From assembly GCA_049999805.1 (NCBI GenBank), contig JBNGIO010005925.1, positions 1 to 32,672 of the forward strand: 32,672 bases of DNA, given 5' to 3'. Shown piece by piece: positions 917-23,190 of the stretch. The notes under the pieces were generated by a model, which saw only the letters and a list, made by a program, of their open reading frames with translations, was not told the origin of the DNA and did not search any database. The DNA comes from Folioceros fuciformis. Lineage: Eukaryota. The first letter of the stretch is position 1. Each line of letters opens with the position of its first letter. Both the position numbers and the translations under genes were made by a program.

Positions 917-3640
917 ATGGTCACTGCATGGCAGCCGGAGCCTTTGTGGACTCAACAGACTGCAATGGGGGAGTGTACAGGGATTGTACGAGGAGCCCCC
1001 TCTCGCCTCATTTTAGGAGGTGAACCTCTGACAAACAAGGCCTCCAACAGGTGCAGCAGTGTATGGAACCCAGCAATTCCACTACCGAGAAAAAGTCTGG
1101 GTGGGCACGGGTATTCCAGTTATGGTCGTCCCAACGACAAGGAGCAGGAGCAAGAGCAAGAGCACTTGTGGAAACGATTTTTCGTGGACCCGTCTATCTG
1201 GTGGGACATCAGACGAAATAAAAAGAGCTCCCGGTCGCCTGACTTCCGGCGTAAGAGGTGGAGCCAGGTCCTGTGCCTGAACAATTTGTTCCAGCCAGGT
1301 TGTGTTGATGAGCAGCTCATCTCCTTGGATGTGCGCGTGGGTCATGGTGCCTCTCCTGCTAGATGCCCATCTTTGGATGAGCCTGAACTTGGCAGGCGTG
1401 GAGGTTCGGGAATGGGTGTGGTCACCGCTGAGACCGTGAGCATGTTATGTCAGCAGGGGATGCTTTCTGAGGCAGTTGGAGCCCTGCAAGATCTGGCGCA
1501 CACGAACCCTGCCATCTCCCGGTCTCTGTTTTACACTGTGCTGAAACTGTGTACAGCCAAGAGGGATTTGGTCTCGGGGCGACGAGTTCATGATCTCACT
1601 GTCAAACTTGGGTACGATTCAAATGCATATGTGGGAAACCATATCTTGCGCATGTATGCATGCGGAGGTCGGCTACAGGAGGCCATGAATGTGTTCAGCA
1701 AGGTGGGCAAACCGGATGCGTTCCTTTGGTTTTCTATAATCTCCGCATTCTCTAAGCAGGGAAAACCTAATGAAGCCATACAACTGTACGAGGAGATGCG
1801 TAGGTCAGGAGTGAAGGCGAATGGCCACGTCTTTGTAGCTGCCCTGCAAGCTTGTGCATTGGCCGCCGACCTGGAATCTGGCAGGAAAGTGCACTCTGAT
1901 GTGTTGCACACTGGCATCCACACTAACTTGTTTGTTGGCAACTGCCTGGTGGACATGTATGCCAAATGTGGCGAATTGGAAGATGCTCGCCAGGTTTTCA
2001 ACAACATGGGGAGAAAGGATGTTGTGACATGTAATGCCCTCATATCTGGGTATGTCAAATGCGGTCAACTGGAAGACGCACGCCAGTTTTTTGACACCAT
2101 GCCCGCAAAGGATGTGGTGACATGGACCGCGCTGATTGCTGGGTATGCGCAGCAAGGGCTTGGCCAAGAGGCGCTCCTTATGTATGAACAAATGGAGGGA
2201 GAGGGCCTTGTTTTGGCTAACCACTTTACTCTGTCTTGCCTTCTGAAGGCCTGTGGAAGTACTGGTGCATTACAGAAGGGCAGGCAGCTGCACTCACATA
2301 TTGAGGAAAGAGGATTGCTGGATAACGTAGTCGTGAGCACCTGCCTGGTGGACATGTATGCAAAATGTGGTGAACTAGAAGCTGCACGCCAGGTTTTTGA
2401 CGGCTTGCCCACCAAGGATGTGGTTACATGGACTGCCCTGATTGCTGGTTATGCACAGCAAGGACTCGGCCAAGAGGCCCTTTCTGTGTATGGACAAATG
2501 GAGGAGGCGGGCCTCATTTTGGCTGACAATGTAACATTTTCTTGCCTGCTGAAGGCCTGTGCAAGCACTGGTGCCTTACAGAAGGGCAGGCAGCTGCACT
2601 CACAAATTGTCAAAAGAGGACTGCTGGATGACGTTGTGGTGGGCACCTGCTTGGTAGATATGTATGCAAAATGTGGTGAACTGGAAGCTGCACGCCAGGT
2701 TTTTGACAGCATGAACACAAAGAATGTGGTGACGTGGACCGCCCTGATATCTGGGTATGGTACTTGTGACGACGGTCAGATGGCACTTGCTTGTTTTGAG
2801 GAGATGTTAGCTGCCGGTATACAGCCTCATGATGCTACTTTTACTAGCCTTCTTGCAGCATGCAGTCATGAGGGACTAGTCGACGAAGGTCGCAAGCACT
2901 TTGCCTCTATGTTTGAACAGCATGGCATCAAACCTACCGTGGAGCATTATACCTGCATGATTGATCTTCTGGGTCGTGCTGGCCATTTGGCTGAGGCAGA
3001 GAAAATGCTATTATCATGTGAGGGCCGAGGCGATGTTGTGGGCCTGACGGCTTTGTTGACCGCCTGCCAAAGTCATGGGGACATAGAGAGGGCGACGTGG
3101 TGTTTTGAGAGCATTGTAAGGCTGGACCCCCAGGAGGCACCCGCCTATGTGCTCATGGCCAATGCCTATGCAGATGCAGGTAGGTGGGTGGATGTAGACA
3201 GGATTGAGACGCAGAGAAGGGCAGCAGGAGCTAACAAGATTGCTGCAGTGGCCACCATTGAGGTGGAGGAGCAGGTACATACATTTGTGGTGGGAGACAG
3301 GAGAGAGGATATTGCGCTCAGGGTGGAGAGCATGAATGCACGTTTGACACAGGAAGGGGGCCATGCACCTCACACAAGGCGGGTGTTGAAGCCAGTATGC
3401 GAGAAGGACAAGGAAGATGCGCTTTGTGGGCATGCTGAAAAACTAGCTATGGCGTTTGGTCTTTTAAATACTCCGAGTGGAACACCTCTGGTGGTGACGA
3501 AGAATTTACGCATGTGCAGTGACTGCCACAGTTCCACGGAGATCATGTCAAGACTTGAACAGAGACACATTGTTGTAAGGGACGGGTACCGGGTGCACCG
3601 ATTCGCTAATGGTTGTTGCAGTTGTAAGGGTCGACCGTGA
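917..3640 (+). CDS. PLS-class PPR protein with E1/E2 and C-terminal DYW:KP (GRP-type) domain; candidate organellar U-to-C RNA editing factor; N-terminal OSB-like PDF motif. The true start may be ATG 719 via an intron starting at 872.
   Basis: 907-aa ORF with P-L-S repeats (LVDMYAKCGELEAARQVFD, DVVTWTALIAGYAQQG), E motifs (HYTCMIDLLGRAGHL; AYVLMANAYA), a C-terminal domain with HAEKLA and CSDCH Zn ligands, and a GRP end instead of DYW. Confidence 0.95.
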   Translation: MVTAWQPEPLWTQQTAMGECTGIVRGAPSRLILGGEPLTNKASNRCSSVWNPAIPLPRKSLGGHGYSSYGRPNDKEQEQEQEHLWKRFFVDPSIWWDIRRNKKSSRSPDFRRKRWSQVLCLNNLFQPGCVDEQLISLDVRVGHGASPARCPSLDEPELGRRGGSGMGVVTAETVSMLCQQGMLSEAVGALQDLAHTNPAISRSLFYTVLKLCTAKRDLVSGRRVHDLTVKLGYDSNAYVGNHILRMYACGGRLQEAMNVFSKVGKPDAFLWFSIISAFSKQGKPNEAIQLYEEMRRSGVKANGHVFVAALQACALAADLESGRKVHSDVLHTGIHTNLFVGNCLVDMYAKCGELEDARQVFNNMGRKDVVTCNALISGYVKCGQLEDARQFFDTMPAKDVVTWTALIAGYAQQGLGQEALLMYEQMEGEGLVLANHFTLSCLLKACGSTGALQKGRQLHSHIEERGLLDNVVVSTCLVDMYAKCGELEAARQVFDGLPTKDVVTWTALIAGYAQQGLGQEALSVYGQMEEAGLILADNVTFSCLLKACASTGALQKGRQLHSQIVKRGLLDDVVVGTCLVDMYAKCGELEAARQVFDSMNTKNVVTWTALISGYGTCDDGQMALACFEEMLAAGIQPHDATFTSLLAACSHEGLVDEGRKHFASMFEQHGIKPTVEHYTCMIDLLGRAGHLAEAEKMLLSCEGRGDVVGLTALLTACQSHGDIERATWCFESIVRLDPQEAPAYVLMANAYADAGRWVDVDRIETQRRAAGANKIAAVATIEVEEQVHTFVVGDRREDIALRVESMNARLTQEGGHAPHTRRVLKPVCEKDKEDALCGHAEKLAMAFGLLNTPSGTPLVVTKNLRMCSDCHSSTEIMSRLEQRHIVVRDGYRVHRFANGCCSCKGRP
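2110..2715 (+). repeat. Internal tandem duplication of one P-L-S PPR triplet (2 x ~303 nt)
   Basis: KDVVTWTALIAGYAQQGLGQEAL...LVDMYAKCGELEAARQVFD occurs twice with near-identical DNA, e.g. CTGAAGGCCTGT...TTACAGAAGGGCAGGCAGCTGCACTCACA. Confidence 0.85.
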
Positions 3641-4734
3641 CAATGGAGAATTGATGTTCCAAGTCTAGGTGGCTACTTCCGCCAGAGAGGATCTGCGTTT
3701 TGGTTTAAAAGCCTTGGGTGGCCCCCAAGTAAATGTGTTTGGGAGGTCAAGCTATCTAGACGAGGCTGGGCAGATGCTACTATTATGTGACGGCAAAAGT
3801 AAGCGTTTGCTGAAAGCCTGCAAAAGTCACGGGGATATAGCCACACATGGCAGTTTGGTGGTTTGAAAGCGTGGTCAACCTGAACTCTTCAAGGGATGCT
3901 GTATACAAGGATTTGTATCCGGGAGTTTGTCACCACCCTATATTTGCTGTGGTTTAGACGGTTTGCGCAAGAACTAAAAAATCTATCGTATCCTTCCTTT
4001 ATCTCATTGGATTCCAGTTTGATCGCATTCGTAATCGTGTCCGGTTGCGCCCTCCCTGCAGGAATGTTCACTGTAGGGGGTTTCTCCTTCCAGGAATGGA
4101 AACCACTGCCGTCTCGTGTCGTCTGTTTCAAGATATCGGGGCTCCACTCCATTGAAGGAAAGGGCATCCCTGAAGGAGCTCTGCAAGATGACCCCGTCAG
4201 AAACTCGTGCAATCCCTACAGGTCAACATCGCTTCAAGGGACATCAATGAGAGAGGGGGCAAGATGGGAACAGGAGGGAAAAGGTTGCAATCAACGATGC
4301 AACCCCTTGGCACGCAAAGCGCATTCTCACCTTATCTTTTGGATGGGCAAGGACCCGCGATGCCCAAGCACTTTCTGACCTTGAGTTGTGGAGACATTGA
4401 GGAGCTCTGTTGCCCCACCTGCCGGCATCAACAGTCTACGATGCCACTTCCTCCTTTTGACACCTTTTTTTTTCTTCCTTAAGCTATCCTTGGTCGGATC
4501 TCTCTGTTCATGGCGTGGCTTGTATCCACCTTTGTTCTAGATGCAAGAGATAAGGCATTCGCCACTCCTTTGGCAACTAGAGATATGGGTGTATTCGGCG
4601 AGGAAGCTTTCCGTACAAAGTGAATGCCAAGCCTTGTGGTGTCCAGAAGAGTGAGTGCAGGGAAAGAAAACCGGAACGAAACCCGGTCGAACAGACAATA
4701 CTCGATGGTTACAGGTAGCGTGTGGATGCGGTCA

Positions 4735-5886
4735 TTATGTTCCGATTAACCGTTTGTAACGAGCATACCCCAGTACACCCCCGAAAACAAGAAATCCTGC
4801 GAACCCTGTTAAAACAACCACCCATTTGAACATGTAGGAGTGGCCAGTATTCCACTTGTATGGAAGGTTCATTCCAAATATTCCAGCCACTAGTGCATAC
4901 AGGGCCGTCACTACTGTTGCAGAGCTCAATATAAGCTCTAGCTGTATCAGCTGATTCCTGTGGTTGTCCAGCTGGATGTTGATGTAATCCTCCGTGTCAT
5001 CAATGTACTCTCGAAGTGTTGTGAGCTTGTTTAGAGTCCCATCAATCTGCATGAAGTATGCCTCCAATAACATTTCAAGCTCCTCAATGTCCTCAGCACC
5101 ATGAGAATAGGTAGACACCGTAGCGGCTCTGCTAGCCCCTCTCGAGAGCCTTGAGCCAATTGTGGGAGAGGTGGCGACCCAGTCCCCGGGTGTCAAAGAC
5201 GTCCGAGCAGCTCTAGGAGATGCTCCTCCCACAGTTTTCCTTGTGAGAAACAGGTCAGCCATGTCCCCGTCATCATCCAGAAGCTGTTCAAGCTCATCCC
5301 TAATCTTTTGAACACGGGCAGTGAGTCTGGTCATCCCGCTCTTCAGCTTCCTCACTTTGTCCAGATTCCGACTAGTAATCTTGTTCGTCAGATCATCTAG
5401 AGCTGGATACGCTGATGTCTCAAGTTCTGTCATGCTTGCGTCCAGAAAGCTACAAATTGCTTCCAAAGCCACTTCCAATGCCCTGAACTCGAAAGGAGGC
5501 ACCTCTCCACTACTATCCACATCGTAGCCCTCCGCTCCAAAATTGTCAGGTTGCTGGACATAATTCTTGGCAGGCAGCCTGCGAGAAAGCTCTTCCACGA
5601 TTGGTACTACGTGCTCGCTGTGAGGGTTCCGCAACAAAACCTCTTCAGCTGTGATTATAGCTTTGATGTGCTCAAGATTCAGAACGATGGCCCGCTCACG
5701 CCCTAGGATGGTCGATGGATAAGACAGCAGAGGGTCTAGAATCCGAAGATCACGGGCATGTATCCCTACCCGATGCATGATCGCATATTTGTCTACATCC
5801 AACGCAGTACGGTGCCCATTCACGTCGAGCAAAACCCAATTCGTGCGAGATGCTCCCTTCTTCGGGCCTTGTGCTTGGACCGCCAT
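4735..5886 (-). CDS. MRS2: MRS2/CorA-family magnesium transporter (MRS2-2/7/I-like), 383 aa, single exon
   Basis: [70 protein letters not shown] and a GMN motif at the end of the first of two C-terminal TM helices. First ATG of the frame is at 5886. Confidence 0.95.
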
Positions 5887-6650
5887 GGCAGCTCTTCGCC
5901 GCGCGGCCGCCTGAGGACCCCAATTCCGGCAAATCAAACAGCTGCACCATAGCACAAGGCAATCCCAGAACGTCGTGCATACTCCTTAGATTCCGAGGGA
6001 ACAGAGTCTGCACGTCGGGGCAGTTATGATAAATGCCTGAGGCGTGCTTAGGTCTGAAGGGCGGACTCCAGCGTCAGCATTATAATTGCTCCAAGAACAT
6101 CCTTACCCTAACAAGCCAAAACACGTGGGCATCAACGGTCTGGGCCGTCTGCCATGGAGATGTGGTCATGCACACTAGGCACCTGCGGATGCGGATGCTG
6201 CCACAACAGTGGTGTCGCTGGACGTTGACGGATGGCCACACTGTGTTAATTTAACCCCTTGTGATCGATCCAACAAAGTCGCTCTGCGTAGAGGGATTCC
6301 AGTAGGACCGCCTGATCAGCTCACTGCAAGGAATGAAGCCACGGAACACAATCAAGCCTTCAGTTACGGCAGTGAAAAGGTGCCCAGCGAAAAAAAATCT
6401 TCGAAAATATGACGTTTTATTCTCTCAGGGCTTGCAATAATAAATCCTAAGCGCTGCACCATCCTCTGGCTTGTGCGCTCATCCAAATGCATGGCATGCC
6501 AAAGTTTTGTCCTAGGGTATCTAGAAACATATTCGCTTTCAATTTTCACTTTGACAAATGAACCAAATCGGACCTTGCACGGGGACACAACAAGCAATCG
6601 CACATATTTATTTGAGTTTTGAGTAAAAACAGCTAGCCTTCCCGTTTTAT

Positions 6651-13537: not shown

Positions 13538-16500
13538 CTAAACAAAGTAGGAAGCAGAAGTAGTCAAGTCTGACAGGATCTCCAGTTGGTCCTCACTGAA
13601 CAGATACTTCTGTATGGCCCACGTGTCCGAATGAGTGCGTCGAAACTCCGCTATGGTTTTCATTACCGTACCTCTGGTGGGTGGACCTTCCTTGATGAAC
13701 CACGCCAAAGCGCAAATGATATCAGGTAACCATAGAGGAACGTCATAAGGAGAACTCAACACGCAAGCTGCCAGACCCAATGCGATTCCATGAACCTTGG
13801 CAACTGGATACCCAGCAATGCTACTCCTGTTTTTCCTCCTGCCAGACTTTTGGAAGGTCAGAGCCTCGGCCAGTGCCTCGTCCCGAAAACTGGTAACCAA
13901 CTTCTCATCAGCCCCTTTCATCATTCCTGCCAACGTTTCTGCTGCCAGCTCCCGGACCTCCAGCTGAGGATCGAAGAGCAGCTGCCGCACAGTATCCCAC
14001 AGCAGCGTTGACTCTTCCTCAGACATGATGAAGGTATGCCTGAAGAAGAAACACTGCATAGACACTAACGCTGCCACTCTCGTGTGCCAATTGGAGTCCG
14101 CTGTCGATAGAACAATAGCAGCCACAGCTTCTGGGAGATGCGCTGCAGGACATGGCTGATAGTTGAGAAGCCGGAGAGCTAACATGGCCAGCGCAGACAG
14201 CTCCTTCTCAGATGTCTCTTGCAGAGACAGCAGAGGGCGGATGAGGCCCACAATAGTACTGATAACAACCCCTGCCCTGCCAGACTTGATGCAAGCAATC
14301 ATGAAATACAGTGCAGTCTCCATCCACTTCACCGCTTGTTTACTCTCCTCACTTCCAACATCACTGCCGCTGGCATTGCTATCGCCGGAACTCAGGGCTG
14401 ATGCAGAGCTCATTATCTGAATCTTGGATGAGGCACTGACAGCACCCTGCACTAACAGTGAGCTCCAATCCTCGTAATGCACCCCGGCAAAGGAACTATC
14501 CACAGTAACCCCCTCTGTATTCAAGATACCCTTCAAGTTTGACAGCAAGACGCACATAATGTTCCCCACTGCTTCACGAACCTGGGCCGCAGGATGAGCC
14601 ATGCTATCCACTGCTTCTCGTAAAAGCGCTGCCTGGAACTTGTAACCCTTGATCCCGGCAGGCCCAGGCAGTAGCTCTGTAACTGCCGCTTGCAGCAGGG
14701 TTAGTCGCCTTGCAACCAGGCTACTTGATGCTGAGGCTGGTACTGGCTCCACAAGACAGTCAAGTATCTTCCTGGATAGCAATGGCTCACTCACTCCGTC
14801 ATTGCCTTTCCGAGTCATAGCAAAACGAATGCAGGCAGCCCATTCTGTCACGGATTCCAAGTTTGCTTGCATCACCACGTTTCTCAACAACGGGCCAAGC
14901 CATTCATTCCAGGCCTCCAACACACACGTGGCATCTGAATGCAAAAGACCAGCAAACATTTCAGAGGCAACACATTGCTTGCCCCTTTCATCCACAGCGT
15001 TGGCTGCATCCTCAAGTGGGCCACGCAGGGCATCAAGTACCGCTGGACCACATTCCTGAACCAGATATTCAAACACCCTGGCTAAATTAGCTGAGAACGC
15101 TTCACCTCTGGAAGTTATGTCCCAAGTCCTTGTTCGGGGCCACTCTCTGATGAATGAAGGCATATAAGCGGTGATTCCCAGATCTGACATCCTCTGTCGA
15201 CTAGATCCAGCATAATTGTTTCTGCCTGACCTCCCCGGTCCCTCCGGATAGTGGTGATCAAAGGCAAGATTCTGGACAACATTGGCAAAAAAATCGCCAT
15301 CCTGCAAGACTTGCACAATGGAACTTTCCACAGAACGTGGGAATTCTTGAACACCTGATTCGGAAACCTCATTATCCGATCTGCCCTCTGCAGCCACCTG
15401 AGTGGGGGACTGGAGAAGAAATTGCAGGGCAATGATGGACATGGGTCGGAGTGGCGGAAGCTCACTCTTCAAATTGGAGAAGAACTGCCCTGTTATGTAC
15501 TGCCTGGAGGCTGACGTGACATCTTCCCCATATGACGAGCCAAACAACCTGGGAGGAGTCACCAATAGCAGGAGCATGGCATGGGCCATCAATGTGTACC
15601 GCCAATGAACTGTTCCCTGATTGCCCGCCAAGAAGCCCTTGATTTCTGATATCAGTCCATCGTACATGGGACCATCCTCGGAGGCATGAGGCACTTCGCT
15701 TGGCAGGACTCCCCCAAACCGCACATAAAACACAACAAACAGTTCATTTATGGCTGCCTGGGCTTTAATAGTTTCAAGATGAGAACTGCGGAGCAAAGAC
15801 AACAAAAACGAAGCGAACGAAGGCCAATCCTGCATGAGGCACCGAATCACATGCCTCGACATGAGTACCCTACAAGCTCCCAGAGCCGCCTCTTCAACAC
15901 CCTCAGGTCCTCGCAGCGAAGCAGTTAGCAGTGGCATGCAACCCTTCACGAGTGCAGGAAACCTCTTAAGCATCTTGCTCAGGGTGTTTGCTGCTTGACC
16001 TCGCACTGTGTCATAATTGTGGAGAGAGAGTTTCAGAAGATCTCCAGAGAGAGAGAGAACGTGGGCTGGAGGAGCCAGCTTCTTGGTGGTGGGAGTGTAT
16101 GGCCTGTACCCAGCTTGGGACGCTCGCCATTCACTATGCAAGTAGACTTTTTCGATTAGGAACCATTGTGGACGCCGAGGTCCCTTTGTGTATGTGCCTG
16201 TTATAAGATTGATCTGAGGCTCCAGAAAGCTTCTGCTAGATGATCTCCAAGCTAACCAGTCTTCAAACTCCAGTGACCCATAATTACCAGTCAATCCAAT
16301 CACTCGCACCAAAGTCAGAAGCAGCTTGGTATCATCTGCCCTCTCCTTCAGGAAAGATTCACATGCAACATGAAGAGCATCTGCAGTCTCCTCTCGCAAT
16401 TCAACAGATCCAACAGAGGCTCCAGCAGCCCCGGCAACAGTTAAAGATTGGCCAGATAAATCTGCATTTGATGGGCGTCTGAAATCAGGCAAGCAAGATC

Positions 16501-19057
16501 TCACACCATGGAGACTTGCTTCCATGCGTAGCAGGACTACTCGTAGGTCTTCCTTCTCCTGCCGTAAAACATCCCCAGTCTGTGCCTGCTGGCAGAAGCT
16601 CAGCAACTCAGGAAGTACGCATCGCAGGTGTGAGTCCAACAACGCATTGGCATATGCAACTTCCTCTGCACTTGGCGCATGCCATACTGGCGCCTGACCT
16701 TTAAATGTCTCCACATCGAAGTCCTTGATACTCATCCATGCCTCAATGTCAGCGAAGTACTTCTCCCCAGACCTGTATTCCTCAAGTGGATAGTACCGTA
16801 TCAAACTCCCCAGTAAATTACTCAGCAGATGGCTTCCAGCCTCATTCACTTTGGTGGAAGGCGCCCCGAAGGCTGCCTCAATCACATTGTTTAACAGATC
16901 CTTGTAAGGGAGGAGAGCTTCTCCACCAAATGTTACAGCTAGAGCAAGAACATTAATCTGGTGAGAGACTGACGTGGACAGAGCGGGAGACAAGCTTGCC
17001 AGCTTGCCATCTGCTTGATTCCTCAAACCCCTGGAAGGAGCCTCAGCCAGAGCAGAGATTATGGACATCATTATCGGCTTAAGAAGGACTTCCGTTGTCT
17101 CAACCGGACTGGCATATACCGCAGCACGGCAAAGCAGACCTATTTCGTCTGAAGCTCCAGGTAAGACGCTGGTGTGCACAAACTTTGCCACCTTTTTCAA
17201 ACCCTGCTGGAAGAGCGGCTTTGTTAACCTACCAAACAGTAGTTCAATCATAGCGTGACACACGGATCCACGCTGAAGCAGAAAACTATGAGAGCACCGA
17301 CTGAACCCTTCGTCGACTCCCACATCTCCTGCCTGACTACTAGGTTCCAAATGCACCAGCAGTACAAACAGACGGGAGAGAAACTCGTCAAGCCACAGAG
17401 ACCAGTCAATTGGTAGGAAAACATTCCCACCTTCCTCAATGCCACCCAAAACTAGGATGCTTGATATTACAGCAAAATAGAACCGCAATGTTGCCAGGGT
17501 CTTAGGAGGGTCGTTGGCATCCATCCCAGGGAGTGTGTCGAACATGGCAGCGACAAGGACTTCCTTGTAGGCCATACTGGCCATGGTCTCTTCAGTAGCG
17601 TCAAGCATGTCCACATCCTTGCCAGCCAACTGCCGTGAGGCAACCTCCCTTGCTGACACTAGCAGTATGGATCTGGCAGCCAACGCCAGAGTGTTCAAAG
17701 CTGATTCCAACTGATGAGTGGCTGTGATAGTATCCATGGCAGTCTGAAAGCCCGCTATGACCAGAGGTAGAACCAGGGATGGTTCCACATATGCCAGGTT
17801 TGTCGCCGCATCTGCTGCAGTTCTTGCCAGCTGCCCATTCTTGCTGTACTGGCCCCTCTCAATCAGCTTCAACATGGCTTTCACAAACGCCACCCGTTCC
17901 TCCGGGCCTAGAAAGTGGTCACTGTCCACGCCATTTTTCAGCTTCAACCTTTTGCCTTGCTCCTTGGCCAGGCGTTTGAGGAAAAACATGACGAGATATC
18001 GAAGAAACTGTTCAAGAAAAGTCGTCCATGATCCTCCATTAGACGGATGGTAATACTGCTCAAGGAGCTCAACAATAATCTCAAGTTGAACCTGAGCTGA
18101 ACCCCCTGGATGCAGCAGAAAAACAATCGTCCTGGCTATTACTTTAGCATTTGACGTTGACCAGCCAGAGTTGAAGGCAAGCATAACTTCACGCGGAACA
18201 GATCTCTGTACCGGCGATGATGCACTGGCCTTCCCGACAGGTACCTCAAATGACCTCAGAAAGTGCATGAAGAGAGTAGGCATGACGGGCTCCAAGTCAG
18301 CAACAGCAGGGGCACAGTGCTGAATATACCTTCCCACCAGGGAGGACCATTGCAGATTCCAATAGTAGCAGTTTGGGATTGCCGACCACAACTTGAGACA
18401 GTCTGCTAGCCATTGCGGAGTGAAAAAAGTACGGTCCCAATCAGAAGCCGCATATTTGGTGGGGAGAAACAATGAGATGAAACCCACTGCTTCGAGCGCC
18501 AGATTGTGAGACAGATCCTCCAGTGCAGGTTTGAACTCCGCCCAGATCTCCCCAGCAGACTGTGAAGGGAAGTAACGGTGACAGCTTCTCACCAATGATG
18601 ACACCAGCTCCAAGTGTGTCTGCTTCAATGCTAGACCTTCATAGCTATGACGCCTGTTGAAATGAGTATTGAGGAGCAGAACATAGAGGGGCCTCCACTC
18701 AATGTTCAAGACAAGTTTTTTTCGATACTTCTTAACAAGTGTAAGTAGGCAGTGCCCCCATCGAACCTGGACAAAGAGATGGTCATTGGACTGCAGGAAG
18801 ATGTCGAGGCTCAGCTCTGCAAGGCACTGCAAATCCGCCAGATCAAGGTCACTCTTAGCCTTCAAAAATGTGGTGAGAACAGAAATCCACCGCAGTGTTG
18901 CATATCTAGACTGCGGCTCTTGAGGCTTCCATTCGCTTTGGACGGTCTGTACAACAACATGGAATTTCGTCCTCTCCTCAGCTACTCCCTCAAGGATGGG
19001 TGGCGGCAGCCATGCATTGCAGAGGTGGACTTTCTCTGGTTCAGCAGTATCCGCCAT
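13538..19057 (-). CDS. PA200: Proteasome activator subunit 4 (PA200/PSME4/Blm10), 1839 aa, single coding exon
   Basis: The N-terminus HLCNAWLPPP matches the plant PA200 start. Also LLEQYYHPSNGGSWT, GMDANDPPKT, SSPYDVPLWLP and AEFRRTHSDTW, with a C-terminal ...SASYFV (proteasome-docking-type tail). First ATG of the frame is at 19057. Confidence 0.95.
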   Translation of the reverse strand: MADTAEPEKVHLCNAWLPPPILEGVAEERTKFHVVVQTVQSEWKPQEPQSRYATLRWISVLTTFLKAKSDLDLADLQCLAELSLDIFLQSNDHLFVQVRWGHCLLTLVKKYRKKLVLNIEWRPLYVLLLNTHFNRRHSYEGLALKQTHLELVSSLVRSCHRYFPSQSAGEIWAEFKPALEDLSHNLALEAVGFISLFLPTKYAASDWDRTFFTPQWLADCLKLWSAIPNCYYWNLQWSSLVGRYIQHCAPAVADLEPVMPTLFMHFLRSFEVPVGKASASSPVQRSVPREVMLAFNSGWSTSNAKVIARTIVFLLHPGGSAQVQLEIIVELLEQYYHPSNGGSWTTFLEQFLRYLVMFFLKRLAKEQGKRLKLKNGVDSDHFLGPEERVAFVKAMLKLIERGQYSKNGQLARTAADAATNLAYVEPSLVLPLVIAGFQTAMDTITATHQLESALNTLALAARSILLVSAREVASRQLAGKDVDMLDATEETMASMAYKEVLVAAMFDTLPGMDANDPPKTLATLRFYFAVISSILVLGGIEEGGNVFLPIDWSLWLDEFLSRLFVLLVHLEPSSQAGDVGVDEGFSRCSHSFLLQRGSVCHAMIELLFGRLTKPLFQQGLKKVAKFVHTSVLPGASDEIGLLCRAAVYASPVETTEVLLKPIMMSIISALAEAPSRGLRNQADGKLASLSPALSTSVSHQINVLALAVTFGGEALLPYKDLLNNVIEAAFGAPSTKVNEAGSHLLSNLLGSLIRYYPLEEYRSGEKYFADIEAWMSIKDFDVETFKGQAPVWHAPSAEEVAYANALLDSHLRCVLPELLSFCQQAQTGDVLRQEKEDLRVVLLRMEASLHGVRSCLPDFRRPSNADLSGQSLTVAGAAGASVGSVELREETADALHVACESFLKERADDTKLLLTLVRVIGLTGNYGSLEFEDWLAWRSSSRSFLEPQINLITGTYTKGPRRPQWFLIEKVYLHSEWRASQAGYRPYTPTTKKLAPPAHVLSLSGDLLKLSLHNYDTVRGQAANTLSKMLKRFPALVKGCMPLLTASLRGPEGVEEAALGACRVLMSRHVIRCLMQDWPSFASFLLSLLRSSHLETIKAQAAINELFVVFYVRFGGVLPSEVPHASEDGPMYDGLISEIKGFLAGNQGTVHWRYTLMAHAMLLLLVTPPRLFGSSYGEDVTSASRQYITGQFFSNLKSELPPLRPMSIIALQFLLQSPTQVAAEGRSDNEVSESGVQEFPRSVESSIVQVLQDGDFFANVVQNLAFDHHYPEGPGRSGRNNYAGSSRQRMSDLGITAYMPSFIREWPRTRTWDITSRGEAFSANLARVFEYLVQECGPAVLDALRGPLEDAANAVDERGKQCVASEMFAGLLHSDATCVLEAWNEWLGPLLRNVVMQANLESVTEWAACIRFAMTRKGNDGVSEPLLSRKILDCLVEPVPASASSSLVARRLTLLQAAVTELLPGPAGIKGYKFQAALLREAVDSMAHPAAQVREAVGNIMCVLLSNLKGILNTEGVTVDSSFAGVHYEDWSSLLVQGAVSASSKIQIMSSASALSSGDSNASGSDVGSEESKQAVKWMETALYFMIACIKSGRAGVVISTIVGLIRPLLSLQETSEKELSALAMLALRLLNYQPCPAAHLPEAVAAIVLSTADSNWHTRVAALVSMQCFFFRHTFIMSEEESTLLWDTVRQLLFDPQLEVRELAAETLAGMMKGADEKLVTSFRDEALAEALTFQKSGRRKNRSSIAGYPVAKVHGIALGLAACVLSSPYDVPLWLPDIICALAWFIKEGPPTRGTVMKTIAEFRRTHSDTWAIQKYLFSEDQLEILSDLTTSASYFV

Positions 19058-19351
19058 TCCTTTCGCTGCGATGCCAACTTCAGGTCGCTGTGTACCTGAC
19101 TGGTTACCAACAAGCCAACGAACTATCCTGTTTCCACAGTCGGCCGCACACTCCTGAAACCTCTGCCAGTCAACAATTACAGCACAGCCCTGCGATCCCA
19201 CTCAACCCTTGTCCACTCCTGTTCCTCGTCAGAAGGCACGTTGAGCATAGACACTTGGAACCGAGTACCACCACCAACTCCCGTCGTATGCAGAATCCCT
19301 AGCACCAGCAAGAAAAAGCGAAGCGGCTGGTAGCAGGTCAAGGTAGTACTG

Positions 19352-21558: not shown

Positions 21559-23190
<1,632 letters not shown>

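Follow-up and report, generated by a model that had tools for sequence, protein, structure and literature searches.

The DYW:KP domains of plant PPR proteins take their name from a Lys-Pro pair at domain positions 1 and 2, and are, to our knowledge, the sole candidates so far for enzymes that edit RNA from U to C (as well as being under development as base editors). The locus described here raises the question of what is to be made of such a domain when this pair is replaced: whether it still belongs to the class, whether the gene that carries it is intact or on its way to decay, and whether the replacement bears on its activity. The gene lies at positions 917-3640 of a stretch of 32,672 nucleotides from Folioceros fuciformis (contig JBNGIO010005925.1 of assembly GCA_049999805.1; the whole stretch is hereafter called the window), and its predicted product is a PPR protein of the PLS class that carries E1, E2 and a GRP-type DYW:KP domain, in which Ile-Ala stands at the usual Lys-Pro positions. 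We consider it probable that this protein, as a member of the hornwort GRP subgroup of PPR-DYW:KP proteins, is encoded in the nucleus and functions as a site-specific RNA editing factor of an organelle.

Class membership of the domain

Homologues were gathered through word-index searches and an exhaustive HMMER search over 1.84 billion representatives, which yielded a set of 345 proteins (two of them being the protein studied here and its domain). The 344 DYW domains of this set were sorted into 257 of HSE type, 55 of HAE type with a short stretch in the PG-box region and 32 others. From the 55 short HAE rows we obtained 53 comparators by leaving out our own row and two rows without an N-terminus (P0247 and P0104), and by adding one row with HVE (P0264). 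A quick maximum-likelihood tree was then built in IQ-TREE from 64 rows (53 class members and 11 outgroup rows; the truncated P0195 was dropped), with support given by the Shimodaira-Hasegawa-like approximate likelihood ratio test (SH-aLRT). In this tree our domain forms one clade (SH-aLRT 96) with the four other GRP-ending domains (P0003, P0006, P0010 and P0260, the only ones besides this one in the whole gathered set), the GRP clade is nested in a 29-row clade together with D-R-H types (support 98), and a branch with a support of 99 parts the DYW-ending outgroup rows from the KP rows. The assignment to the GRP type of DYW:KP, first made from the sequence alone (the sequence-only reading), is borne out by this clade, and the contrary outcome that it had envisaged, a clustering with canonical DYW:PG domains, is contradicted by the same tree.

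The features of the domain agree with this placement. DYW:KP domains are regarded as confined to plants with U-to-C editing (hornworts, lycophytes and ferns), and membership of the GRP subgroup would by itself point to a hornwort. GRP and DRH have been described as the two DYW:KP subgroups of hornworts (PMC9478123, citing Gerke et al. 2020), and the published marks of the class include the presence of Ala or Cys for Ser in HxE (PMC11845758) and a PG-box region shortened by 3-4 residues, without xHP (PMC11332814). No Pro-Gly (PG box) occurs in the translation of the C-terminal domain, the stretch that follows V-V-G is 10 residues long (as against 14 in the aligned HSE-type domains, which carry xHP), and the domain has 133 residues, within the class length of 132-133. 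The five features listed in the sequence-only reading (the lack of PG, the shortened stretch, HAE, CSDCH and the terminal GRP) were all found where it had placed them, in the translation of 3236-3640, an interval that comprises the last E2 residue, the DYW domain and the stop codon. In GRP proteins the Lys partner of the D-Y-W Asp (K103 by the numbering of PG domains) is reported to give way to Glu (PMC9478123); the corresponding position 101 is Glu here and Lys in 49 of the 53 class members, and in the four other GRP domains it is Glu (two), Thr (one) or Gln (one). As for the site of the class deletion, one gathered domain with a D-R-P end (P0101) has 29 residues where the others have 10-14, which amounts to an insertion at that site.

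The name-giving Lys-Pro is absent from positions 1-2, where Ile-Ala is found. Since exact K-P is present in just 33 of the 53 comparators, which share every other feature, the assignment rests on the tree and on those other features, and the KP pair is a frequent mark of the class, not a requirement for it. Taken together, the clade and the shared marks identify the domain as a GRP-type DYW:KP domain.

Profile and structure comparisons place the domain in the DYW deaminase superfamily. The coding sequence matches PPR families of Pfam (E 1e-38 to 2e-81), E_motif (8.5e-13) and DYW_deaminase (2.5e-31), and the DYW domain by itself matches PF14432 with 112.8 bits (cut-off 24, E 7e-33). An AlphaFold2 model of the domain, made from 62 aligned sequences, has a mean predicted local distance difference test (pLDDT) score of 91.5. 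The best Foldseek match of this predicted model is a synthetic PPR-DYW protein bound to RNA (9kfx_A; E 2.4e-15, query-based template modelling score (TMq) 0.92, root-mean-square deviation 1.4), followed by OTP86 (7o4f/7o4e) and DYW1 (7w86) with E values of about 1e-10. A search of solved structures by sequence returned PG-type chains only and no KP-type chain.

The E2/DYW junction

In an ungapped alignment with the four other GRP domains, the junction reads [K]-I-A-A-V-A here opposite [K]-K-P-A-x-A, with no indel or insertion. The leading Lys (3236-3238), conserved in at least 90% of 62 DYW domains from the two classes, is the last residue of E2. In the KP pair, Ile (ATT, 3239-3241) takes the place of K and Ala (GCT, 3242-3244) that of P. 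Counting Ile as position 1 fits the numbering used in PMC11845758 (Lys88, Gly64, Val113, Val119 and a length of 133). The sequence-only reading had described the K-P-A-x-A signature as altered to KIAAVA, with the Pro lost; the alteration stands, and the register has to be corrected, as the first Lys belongs to E2 and both K and P are substituted.

Among the 53 comparators position 1 is K in 43, M in four, L in four, R in one and Q in one, and position 2 is P in 41, A in four, L in three, R in two and V, S and I in one each; neither K nor P is found in two of them (R-S in P0265 and M-A in P0020). On a second tree, from which the six junction columns were left out (53 rows, our own domain included), at least 11 changes are required to explain the 13 rows that have no Pro, and at least 10 to explain the 11 that have no Lys. 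In a fern-like pair of sister rows (support 100), P0020 reads K-M-A-A-V-A and P0026 K-L-P-A-V-A, a difference that indicates a recent Pro-to-Ala change in another lineage. A literature search on variation of the KPAxA motif found no treatment of it, which is a weak negative as the founding papers lay outside the coverage of that search.

For the GRP subgroup the same comparison rests on four other domains, that being the number which the searches gave, and GRP proteins are stated to be under-represented in transcriptomes (PMC9478123). The outcome that the sequence-only reading had set against its own interest, namely that the KIAA variant is common among GRP proteins, does not hold within GRP (none of the four others is without KP), though its spirit holds for the wider KP class.

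We also looked at paralogues, by aligning on the gene the contigs of four sequencing runs at 80% likeness, two of these runs (X1 and X2) being from the same organism. Letters that are merely compatible, one by one, with K-P (A at 3240 and C at 3242) were found in 52 and 50 contigs of X1 and in 62 and 60 contigs of X2, respectively. Further, sets of 15 and 17 contigs agree with the gene as far as 3239 and go on with the consensus K-P-A-V-A-T-I-E-V-N. The closest paralogues clearly carry K-P before the same A-V-A-T-I-E-V. Among the contigs listed from the sequencing runs at this likeness, none covers 1557-3610 without differences. Loss of Lys-Pro thus appears, from the sequences compared, to be commonplace class-wide and unusual both within GRP and within the species.

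Integrity of the gene and of the domain

The coding sequence is a single uninterrupted and intronless open reading frame (ORF) of 907 codons followed by TGA, with an in-frame stop upstream of it at 911, and its length is far above chance expectation. Within the domain every catalytic residue is conserved: the 62-domain alignment shows no variation at H66, E68, C94, C97, H98, H121 and C130, while C128 is conserved in at least 90% of the domains. All of them are present here, so that both the HxE...CxxC zinc/catalytic signature and that of the second zinc site (CxxCH, H, CxC) are complete. Lys88 is likewise invariant in the alignment of DYW domains and present here; as it is conserved in PG domains too (PMC11845758), it does not discriminate between the classes.

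When measured against the 53 comparators, 44 columns reach a conservation of 90% or more in the class, and the domain agrees with 43 of these (every zinc ligand, Glu67 and Lys88 among them); the single column missed is that of Glu101, the GRP mark published in PMC9478123. In a leave-one-out ranking over about 45 columns it scores 44/45, in the upper half of the 54 class members. The suggestion of the sequence-only reading that this might be an allele starting to decay is not supported, because the ORF is intact, 43 of 44 columns are kept and the lone miss is a mark of the subgroup; judged by these measures, there is no sign of decay in the gene or the domain.

The PPR array and its predicted target

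The boundaries of the PPR motifs were set by hand from the usual P, L and S lengths and tabulated by offsets, which gave the order P?-L1-S1-P1-L1-S1-SS-P1-L1-S1-P1-L1-S1-P2-L2-S2. A 31-residue S-type motif (2021-2113; V-V-T-C-N..., N/D) directly after S1 forms an S1-SS irregularity in the P-L-S order. It is followed by a P1-L1-S1 triplet of 306 bp in two tandem copies (2114-2419 and 2420-2725, forward strand), identical at 257 of 306 bases and at 82 of 102 residues, which Tandem Repeats Finder (TRF) reports with a period of 306 and 2.3 copies at 2050-2759. Between the copies there are 22 synonymous and 20 non-synonymous codon differences (a crude count, with no dN/dS test), and the 'last' specificity residue differs between them in all three motif pairs (N/D, N/D and D/N).

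According to the PPR code, the fifth and last residues of a motif together specify a base (T+N and S+N specify A, T+D and S+D specify G, and N+D specifies U), L-type motifs being the less reliable RNA readers. As the specificity residues of the two triplet copies differ, they are predicted to read the duplicated block differently, as A-A-G and as G-G-A. Applying the code, and placing the S2 motif at -4, we obtain A-U-n-n-U-U-A-A-G-G-G-A-n-n-G as the putative RNA target at positions -18 to -4.

Proposed function and alternative explanations

If the protein is an editing factor of this kind, it would be imported into an organelle, where its PPR array would bind a single RNA site, the 16 motifs reading about 15 nucleotides upstream of the target. 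E1 and E2 would hold the RNA backbone around the site, with participation of the last E2 Lys, and the zinc site (His65, Cys93 and Cys96), Glu67 and Lys88 would convert the uridine at position 0 to cytidine. In this scheme Lys88 would attack C4 of the uracil, giving rise to a protein-RNA link that would have to be resolved to free cytidine. The scheme follows published work in which Lys88 was proposed as the nitrogen donor and crosslinking residue of U-to-C editing (PMC11845758, PMC11332814), was essential for U-to-C in KP2, KP3 and KP6 (PMC11845758), and on mutation to Ala (K88A) abolished U-to-C and gave C-to-U instead (PMC11332814, PMC11845758). That consensus KP domains edit U-to-C heterologously, as the sequence-only reading had stated, is confirmed for the GRP consensus designs KP2 and KP3, with 26% and 22% U-to-C in E. 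coli (PMC9478123). Its view of the U-to-C mechanism as unresolved holds for the resolution of the link and for natural activity, and has in part been overtaken by the work on Lys88, a residue kept here. The further idea, that the missing Pro offers a special lever on this mechanism, finds no support, given that Pro is replaced in 12 of the 53 comparators, that its losses on the second tree (our own domain included) need at least 11 independent events and that the mechanism now centres on Lys88.

The Ile-Ala at the E2/DYW junction would, on this account, be a tolerated lineage-specific substitution, at most removing one positive charge beside an RNA-contacting Lys. The junction Lys aligns with chain position 476 of 9kfx and, allowing for a two-residue offset (chain 612 as against W610), would correspond to K474(L,E2) of the synthetic PPR-DYW protein. 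The solved C-to-U complex shows a contact of K474 with the +2 phosphate at the RNA U-turn, and K474D strongly lowers editing (PMC13324415). A Lys 'directly before the PG box' (K555 in PPR56 and K823 in OTP86) is needed for editing according to PMC7611903, and is probably the same residue as the junction Lys. Positions 1 and 2 follow this Lys and precede the first deaminase strand (in the AlphaFold2 model the strands start at residue 5 of P0002); the replacement of Lys by Ile would thus take away a positive charge next to a Lys that binds the backbone.

Several observations weigh against this account, and we gather them here. By the time of PMC11845758 (2025) editing had yet to be demonstrated for a natural DYW:KP protein, consensus designs being the only ones assayed (PMC9478123, PMC11845758), and the synthetic DYW:KP proteins stall at the protein-RNA crosslink in bacteria, KP6 moreover editing C-to-U as well (PMC11332814). 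All four other GRP domains keep K-P, which makes I-A unique to our domain within GRP, and in the same-organism runs the KP-compatible letters at 3240 and 3242 make up 96 to 98% of the depth summed over the paralogous contigs there (contig depth not being a measure of copy number). Lastly, its end branch in the 64-row tree (0.35) is the longest of the GRP clade (0.18 to 0.24 in the others), and is the sole hint of a possible relaxation or change of constraint.

The long branch leads to the explanation that survives best next to the preferred one, though we regard it as unlikely: that the gene is a young redundant paralogue under relaxed constraint, in which I-A is an early neutral or slightly harmful change and for which no editing site of its own is left. 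Hundreds of paralogous contigs align on the gene at 80% likeness, which speaks for a large family, the triplet duplication and a downstream PPR fragment (see below) are indicative of turnover at the locus, and the N-terminal motif is less canonical than that of P0003, all of which such drift could account for. It accords poorly, however, with the lack of any stop or frameshift across the 907 codons, with the retention of nearly all class-conserved columns (zinc ligands, Glu67 and Lys88 among them) and with the differences between the triplet copies, which include all three specificity positions and on the crude count look more like divergence in use than like decay.

Less probable still, in our estimate, is that I-A alters the action of the domain, whether by moving it from U-to-C toward C-to-U, by affecting the release of the crosslinked intermediate or by changing how the nucleotides immediately 3' of the site are handled. 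KP6 can be flipped between U-to-C and C-to-U by single and triple substitutions that lie outside the active site (PMC11845758), positions 1-2 adjoin the Lys that aligns with K474(L,E2), whose mutation to Asp strongly lowers editing (PMC13324415), the equivalent K555A lowers editing in PPR56 (PMC7611903), and the Lys beside this backbone-contacting residue is replaced here by Ile. Yet positions 1-2 vary freely in the class, with M, L, Q or R at position 1 in comparators other than those with exact KP, we found no RNA or active-site contact named for these positions in sections on structure (e.g. in PMC13324415), and no named mutant of position 1 or 2 in text of PMC11845758 (the full list of the 45 KP6 mutants being in its supplement). 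Finally, that the domain is a canonical C-to-U deaminase of the DYW:PG class which merely lost its PG box is scarcely credible, for although its predicted fold and its zinc and Glu residues are those of the solved C-to-U domains, it groups with the short HAE domains inside the GRP clade, from which the DYW-ending outgroup is split off, and it shares with that clade the deletion, HAE, Glu101 and the GRP tail.

Gene features and genomic surroundings

The features of the gene are collected in Table 1. Ahead of the PPR array lies an N-terminal region of 167 residues, and a Pfam search with residues 1-168 matched no family. The motif in this region recurs, by regular expression, in five of the 343 other gathered proteins, namely P0003 (GRP), P0009 (DRH) and three whose tails are not of KP type (two DYW and one DYL), and many paralogous contigs stack on it (1169-1246). 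It bears a putative likeness to the 'PDF motif' of the plant organellar single-stranded DNA-binding OSB proteins.

Table 1. Features of the PPR-DYW:KP gene and of its 3' flank (positions in the window)
Feature	Positions	Strand	Basis
Complete intronless coding sequence, PLS-PPR-E1-E2-DYW:KP	917..3640	+	ORF, translation, Pfam
N-terminal motif W..FF.DP..WWD.R...PDF, ahead of the PPR array	1169..1246	+	Regular-expression scan
Putative 16-motif PPR array	1418..3034	+	Motif table; boundaries set by hand and thus inferred
E1	3035..3136	+	Pfam E_motif, motif table
E2, last residue a conserved Lys (AAG, 3236-3238)	3137..3238	+	Pfam E_motif, motif table
DYW:KP domain, GRP subgroup, 133 residues	3239..3637	+	Pfam PF14432, numbering, clade, model
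Ile-Ala (ATT GCT) at the usual Lys-Pro positions	3239..3244	+	Alignment with GRP domains
Stretch V-V-G-D-R-R-E-D-I-A, 3-4 residues shorter than in DYW:PG, without xHP	3287..3316	+	Alignment
H-A-E: zinc-binding His, Ala for the Ser of the PG type, catalytic Glu	3431..3439	+	Translation
Lys88 (AAG), active-site Lys	3500..3502	+	Numbering of PMC11845758
C-S-D-C-H: two zinc-binding Cys, then His	3515..3529	+	Translation
Glu101, mark of the GRP subgroup	3539..3541	+	Class alignment
Terminal G-R-P (GGT CGA CCG), then TGA stop	3629..3640	+	Translation
Frame-broken E1-like PPR fragment, about 160 bp 3' of the stop	3795..3880	+	Alignment to the gene's own E1

The fragment 3' of the gene (L-L-K-A-C-K-S-H-G-D-I...) aligns to the gene's own E1 with indels, the depth of paralogous contigs peaks at 3802-3928, and a back-joint leads from 3840 to 3149; the fragment is what is left of another PPR gene or of a duplication that was partial. 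Elsewhere in the window we noted a C/A-rich tandem repeat (28-445, period of about 53 bp, 8.3 copies, 84% matches; the TRF rows run from base 1) and three ORFs on the reverse strand, which encode an MRS2/CorA-like magnesium transporter (4735-5955), a PSME4/PA200-like proteasome activator subunit 4 (13538-19201, an uninterrupted ORF of 1887 codons) and a monodehydroascorbate reductase (21559-23187). These neighbouring ORFs are ordinary nuclear plant gene content.

Significance

The gene adds one intact natural GRP-type sequence to a known hornwort subgroup, and by itself leaves the question of mechanism where it stands. It places the KP pair among the less constrained features of the class, with Lys88, HAE, both zinc sites and the deletion kept. 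Given how loosely KP is kept (it is exact in 33 of the 53 comparators, and Pro was lost at least 11 times on the tree), members of the class are not to be screened for by the KP motif. A bolder possibility, to which we give little credence, is that of a natural GRP editing factor working without KP, in which the loss of the charge and of the rigid Pro could change the hold on the downstream RNA turn, and could thereby tip the domain between U-to-C and C-to-U or affect how Lys88 is released from the RNA. Were that so, the gene and its close KP-bearing paralogues in the same genome would form a natural pair from which the role of KP could be learned. The gene is in any case usable as the natural half of a comparison of I-A with K-P.

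Comparison with known systems

The closest known system is the hornwort GRP subgroup (the basis of the designs KP2 and KP3), with which the protein shares the PLS array, E1, E2, the 133-residue domain, HAE, the lack of xHP, Lys88, Glu101 and the GRP end. Its domain is 64 to 69% identical to P0003, P0006 and P0010 and 60% identical to P0260. It departs from all four of them in having I-A in place of K-P and Thr in place of Gly at position 6, and from P0003, P0006 and P0010 in reading 'D-G-Y' at 115-117 where they read 'D-A-H/R'.

The DRH subgroup (the basis of KP1) is similar in its short HAE-type domain, in its place in the common 29-row clade and in an identity of about 58 to 64%, and differs in the D-R-H end and in Lys at position 101; of seven designs, PMC9478123 reported editing by three (KP2, KP3 and KP6), which do not include KP1. 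The fern-type P0020 (with a D-I-F end, in a clade with a Ceratopteris richardii protein) has a junction nearly identical to ours (K-M-A-A-V-A as against K-I-A-A-V-A), and differs in its separate clade, in C-E-H-A-E-K-M, in an 11-residue stretch after V-V-G-D and in Lys at 101. Since P0020 sits in a different and well-separated clade with other features, the likeness of the junctions is convergent.

The DYW:PG domains of solved structure (OTP86 7o4e/7o4f, DYW1 7w86 and the synthetic 9kfx/9kfy) resemble our domain in sequence (E 1e-26 to 1e-34) and in predicted fold (TMq 0.75 to 0.92 for the model), and have in common with it the zinc ligands, the Glu, the active-site Lys and the second zinc site. 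They differ from it by P-G-x-S-W, the xHP stretch, HSE and the D-Y-W tail, and they edit C-to-U.

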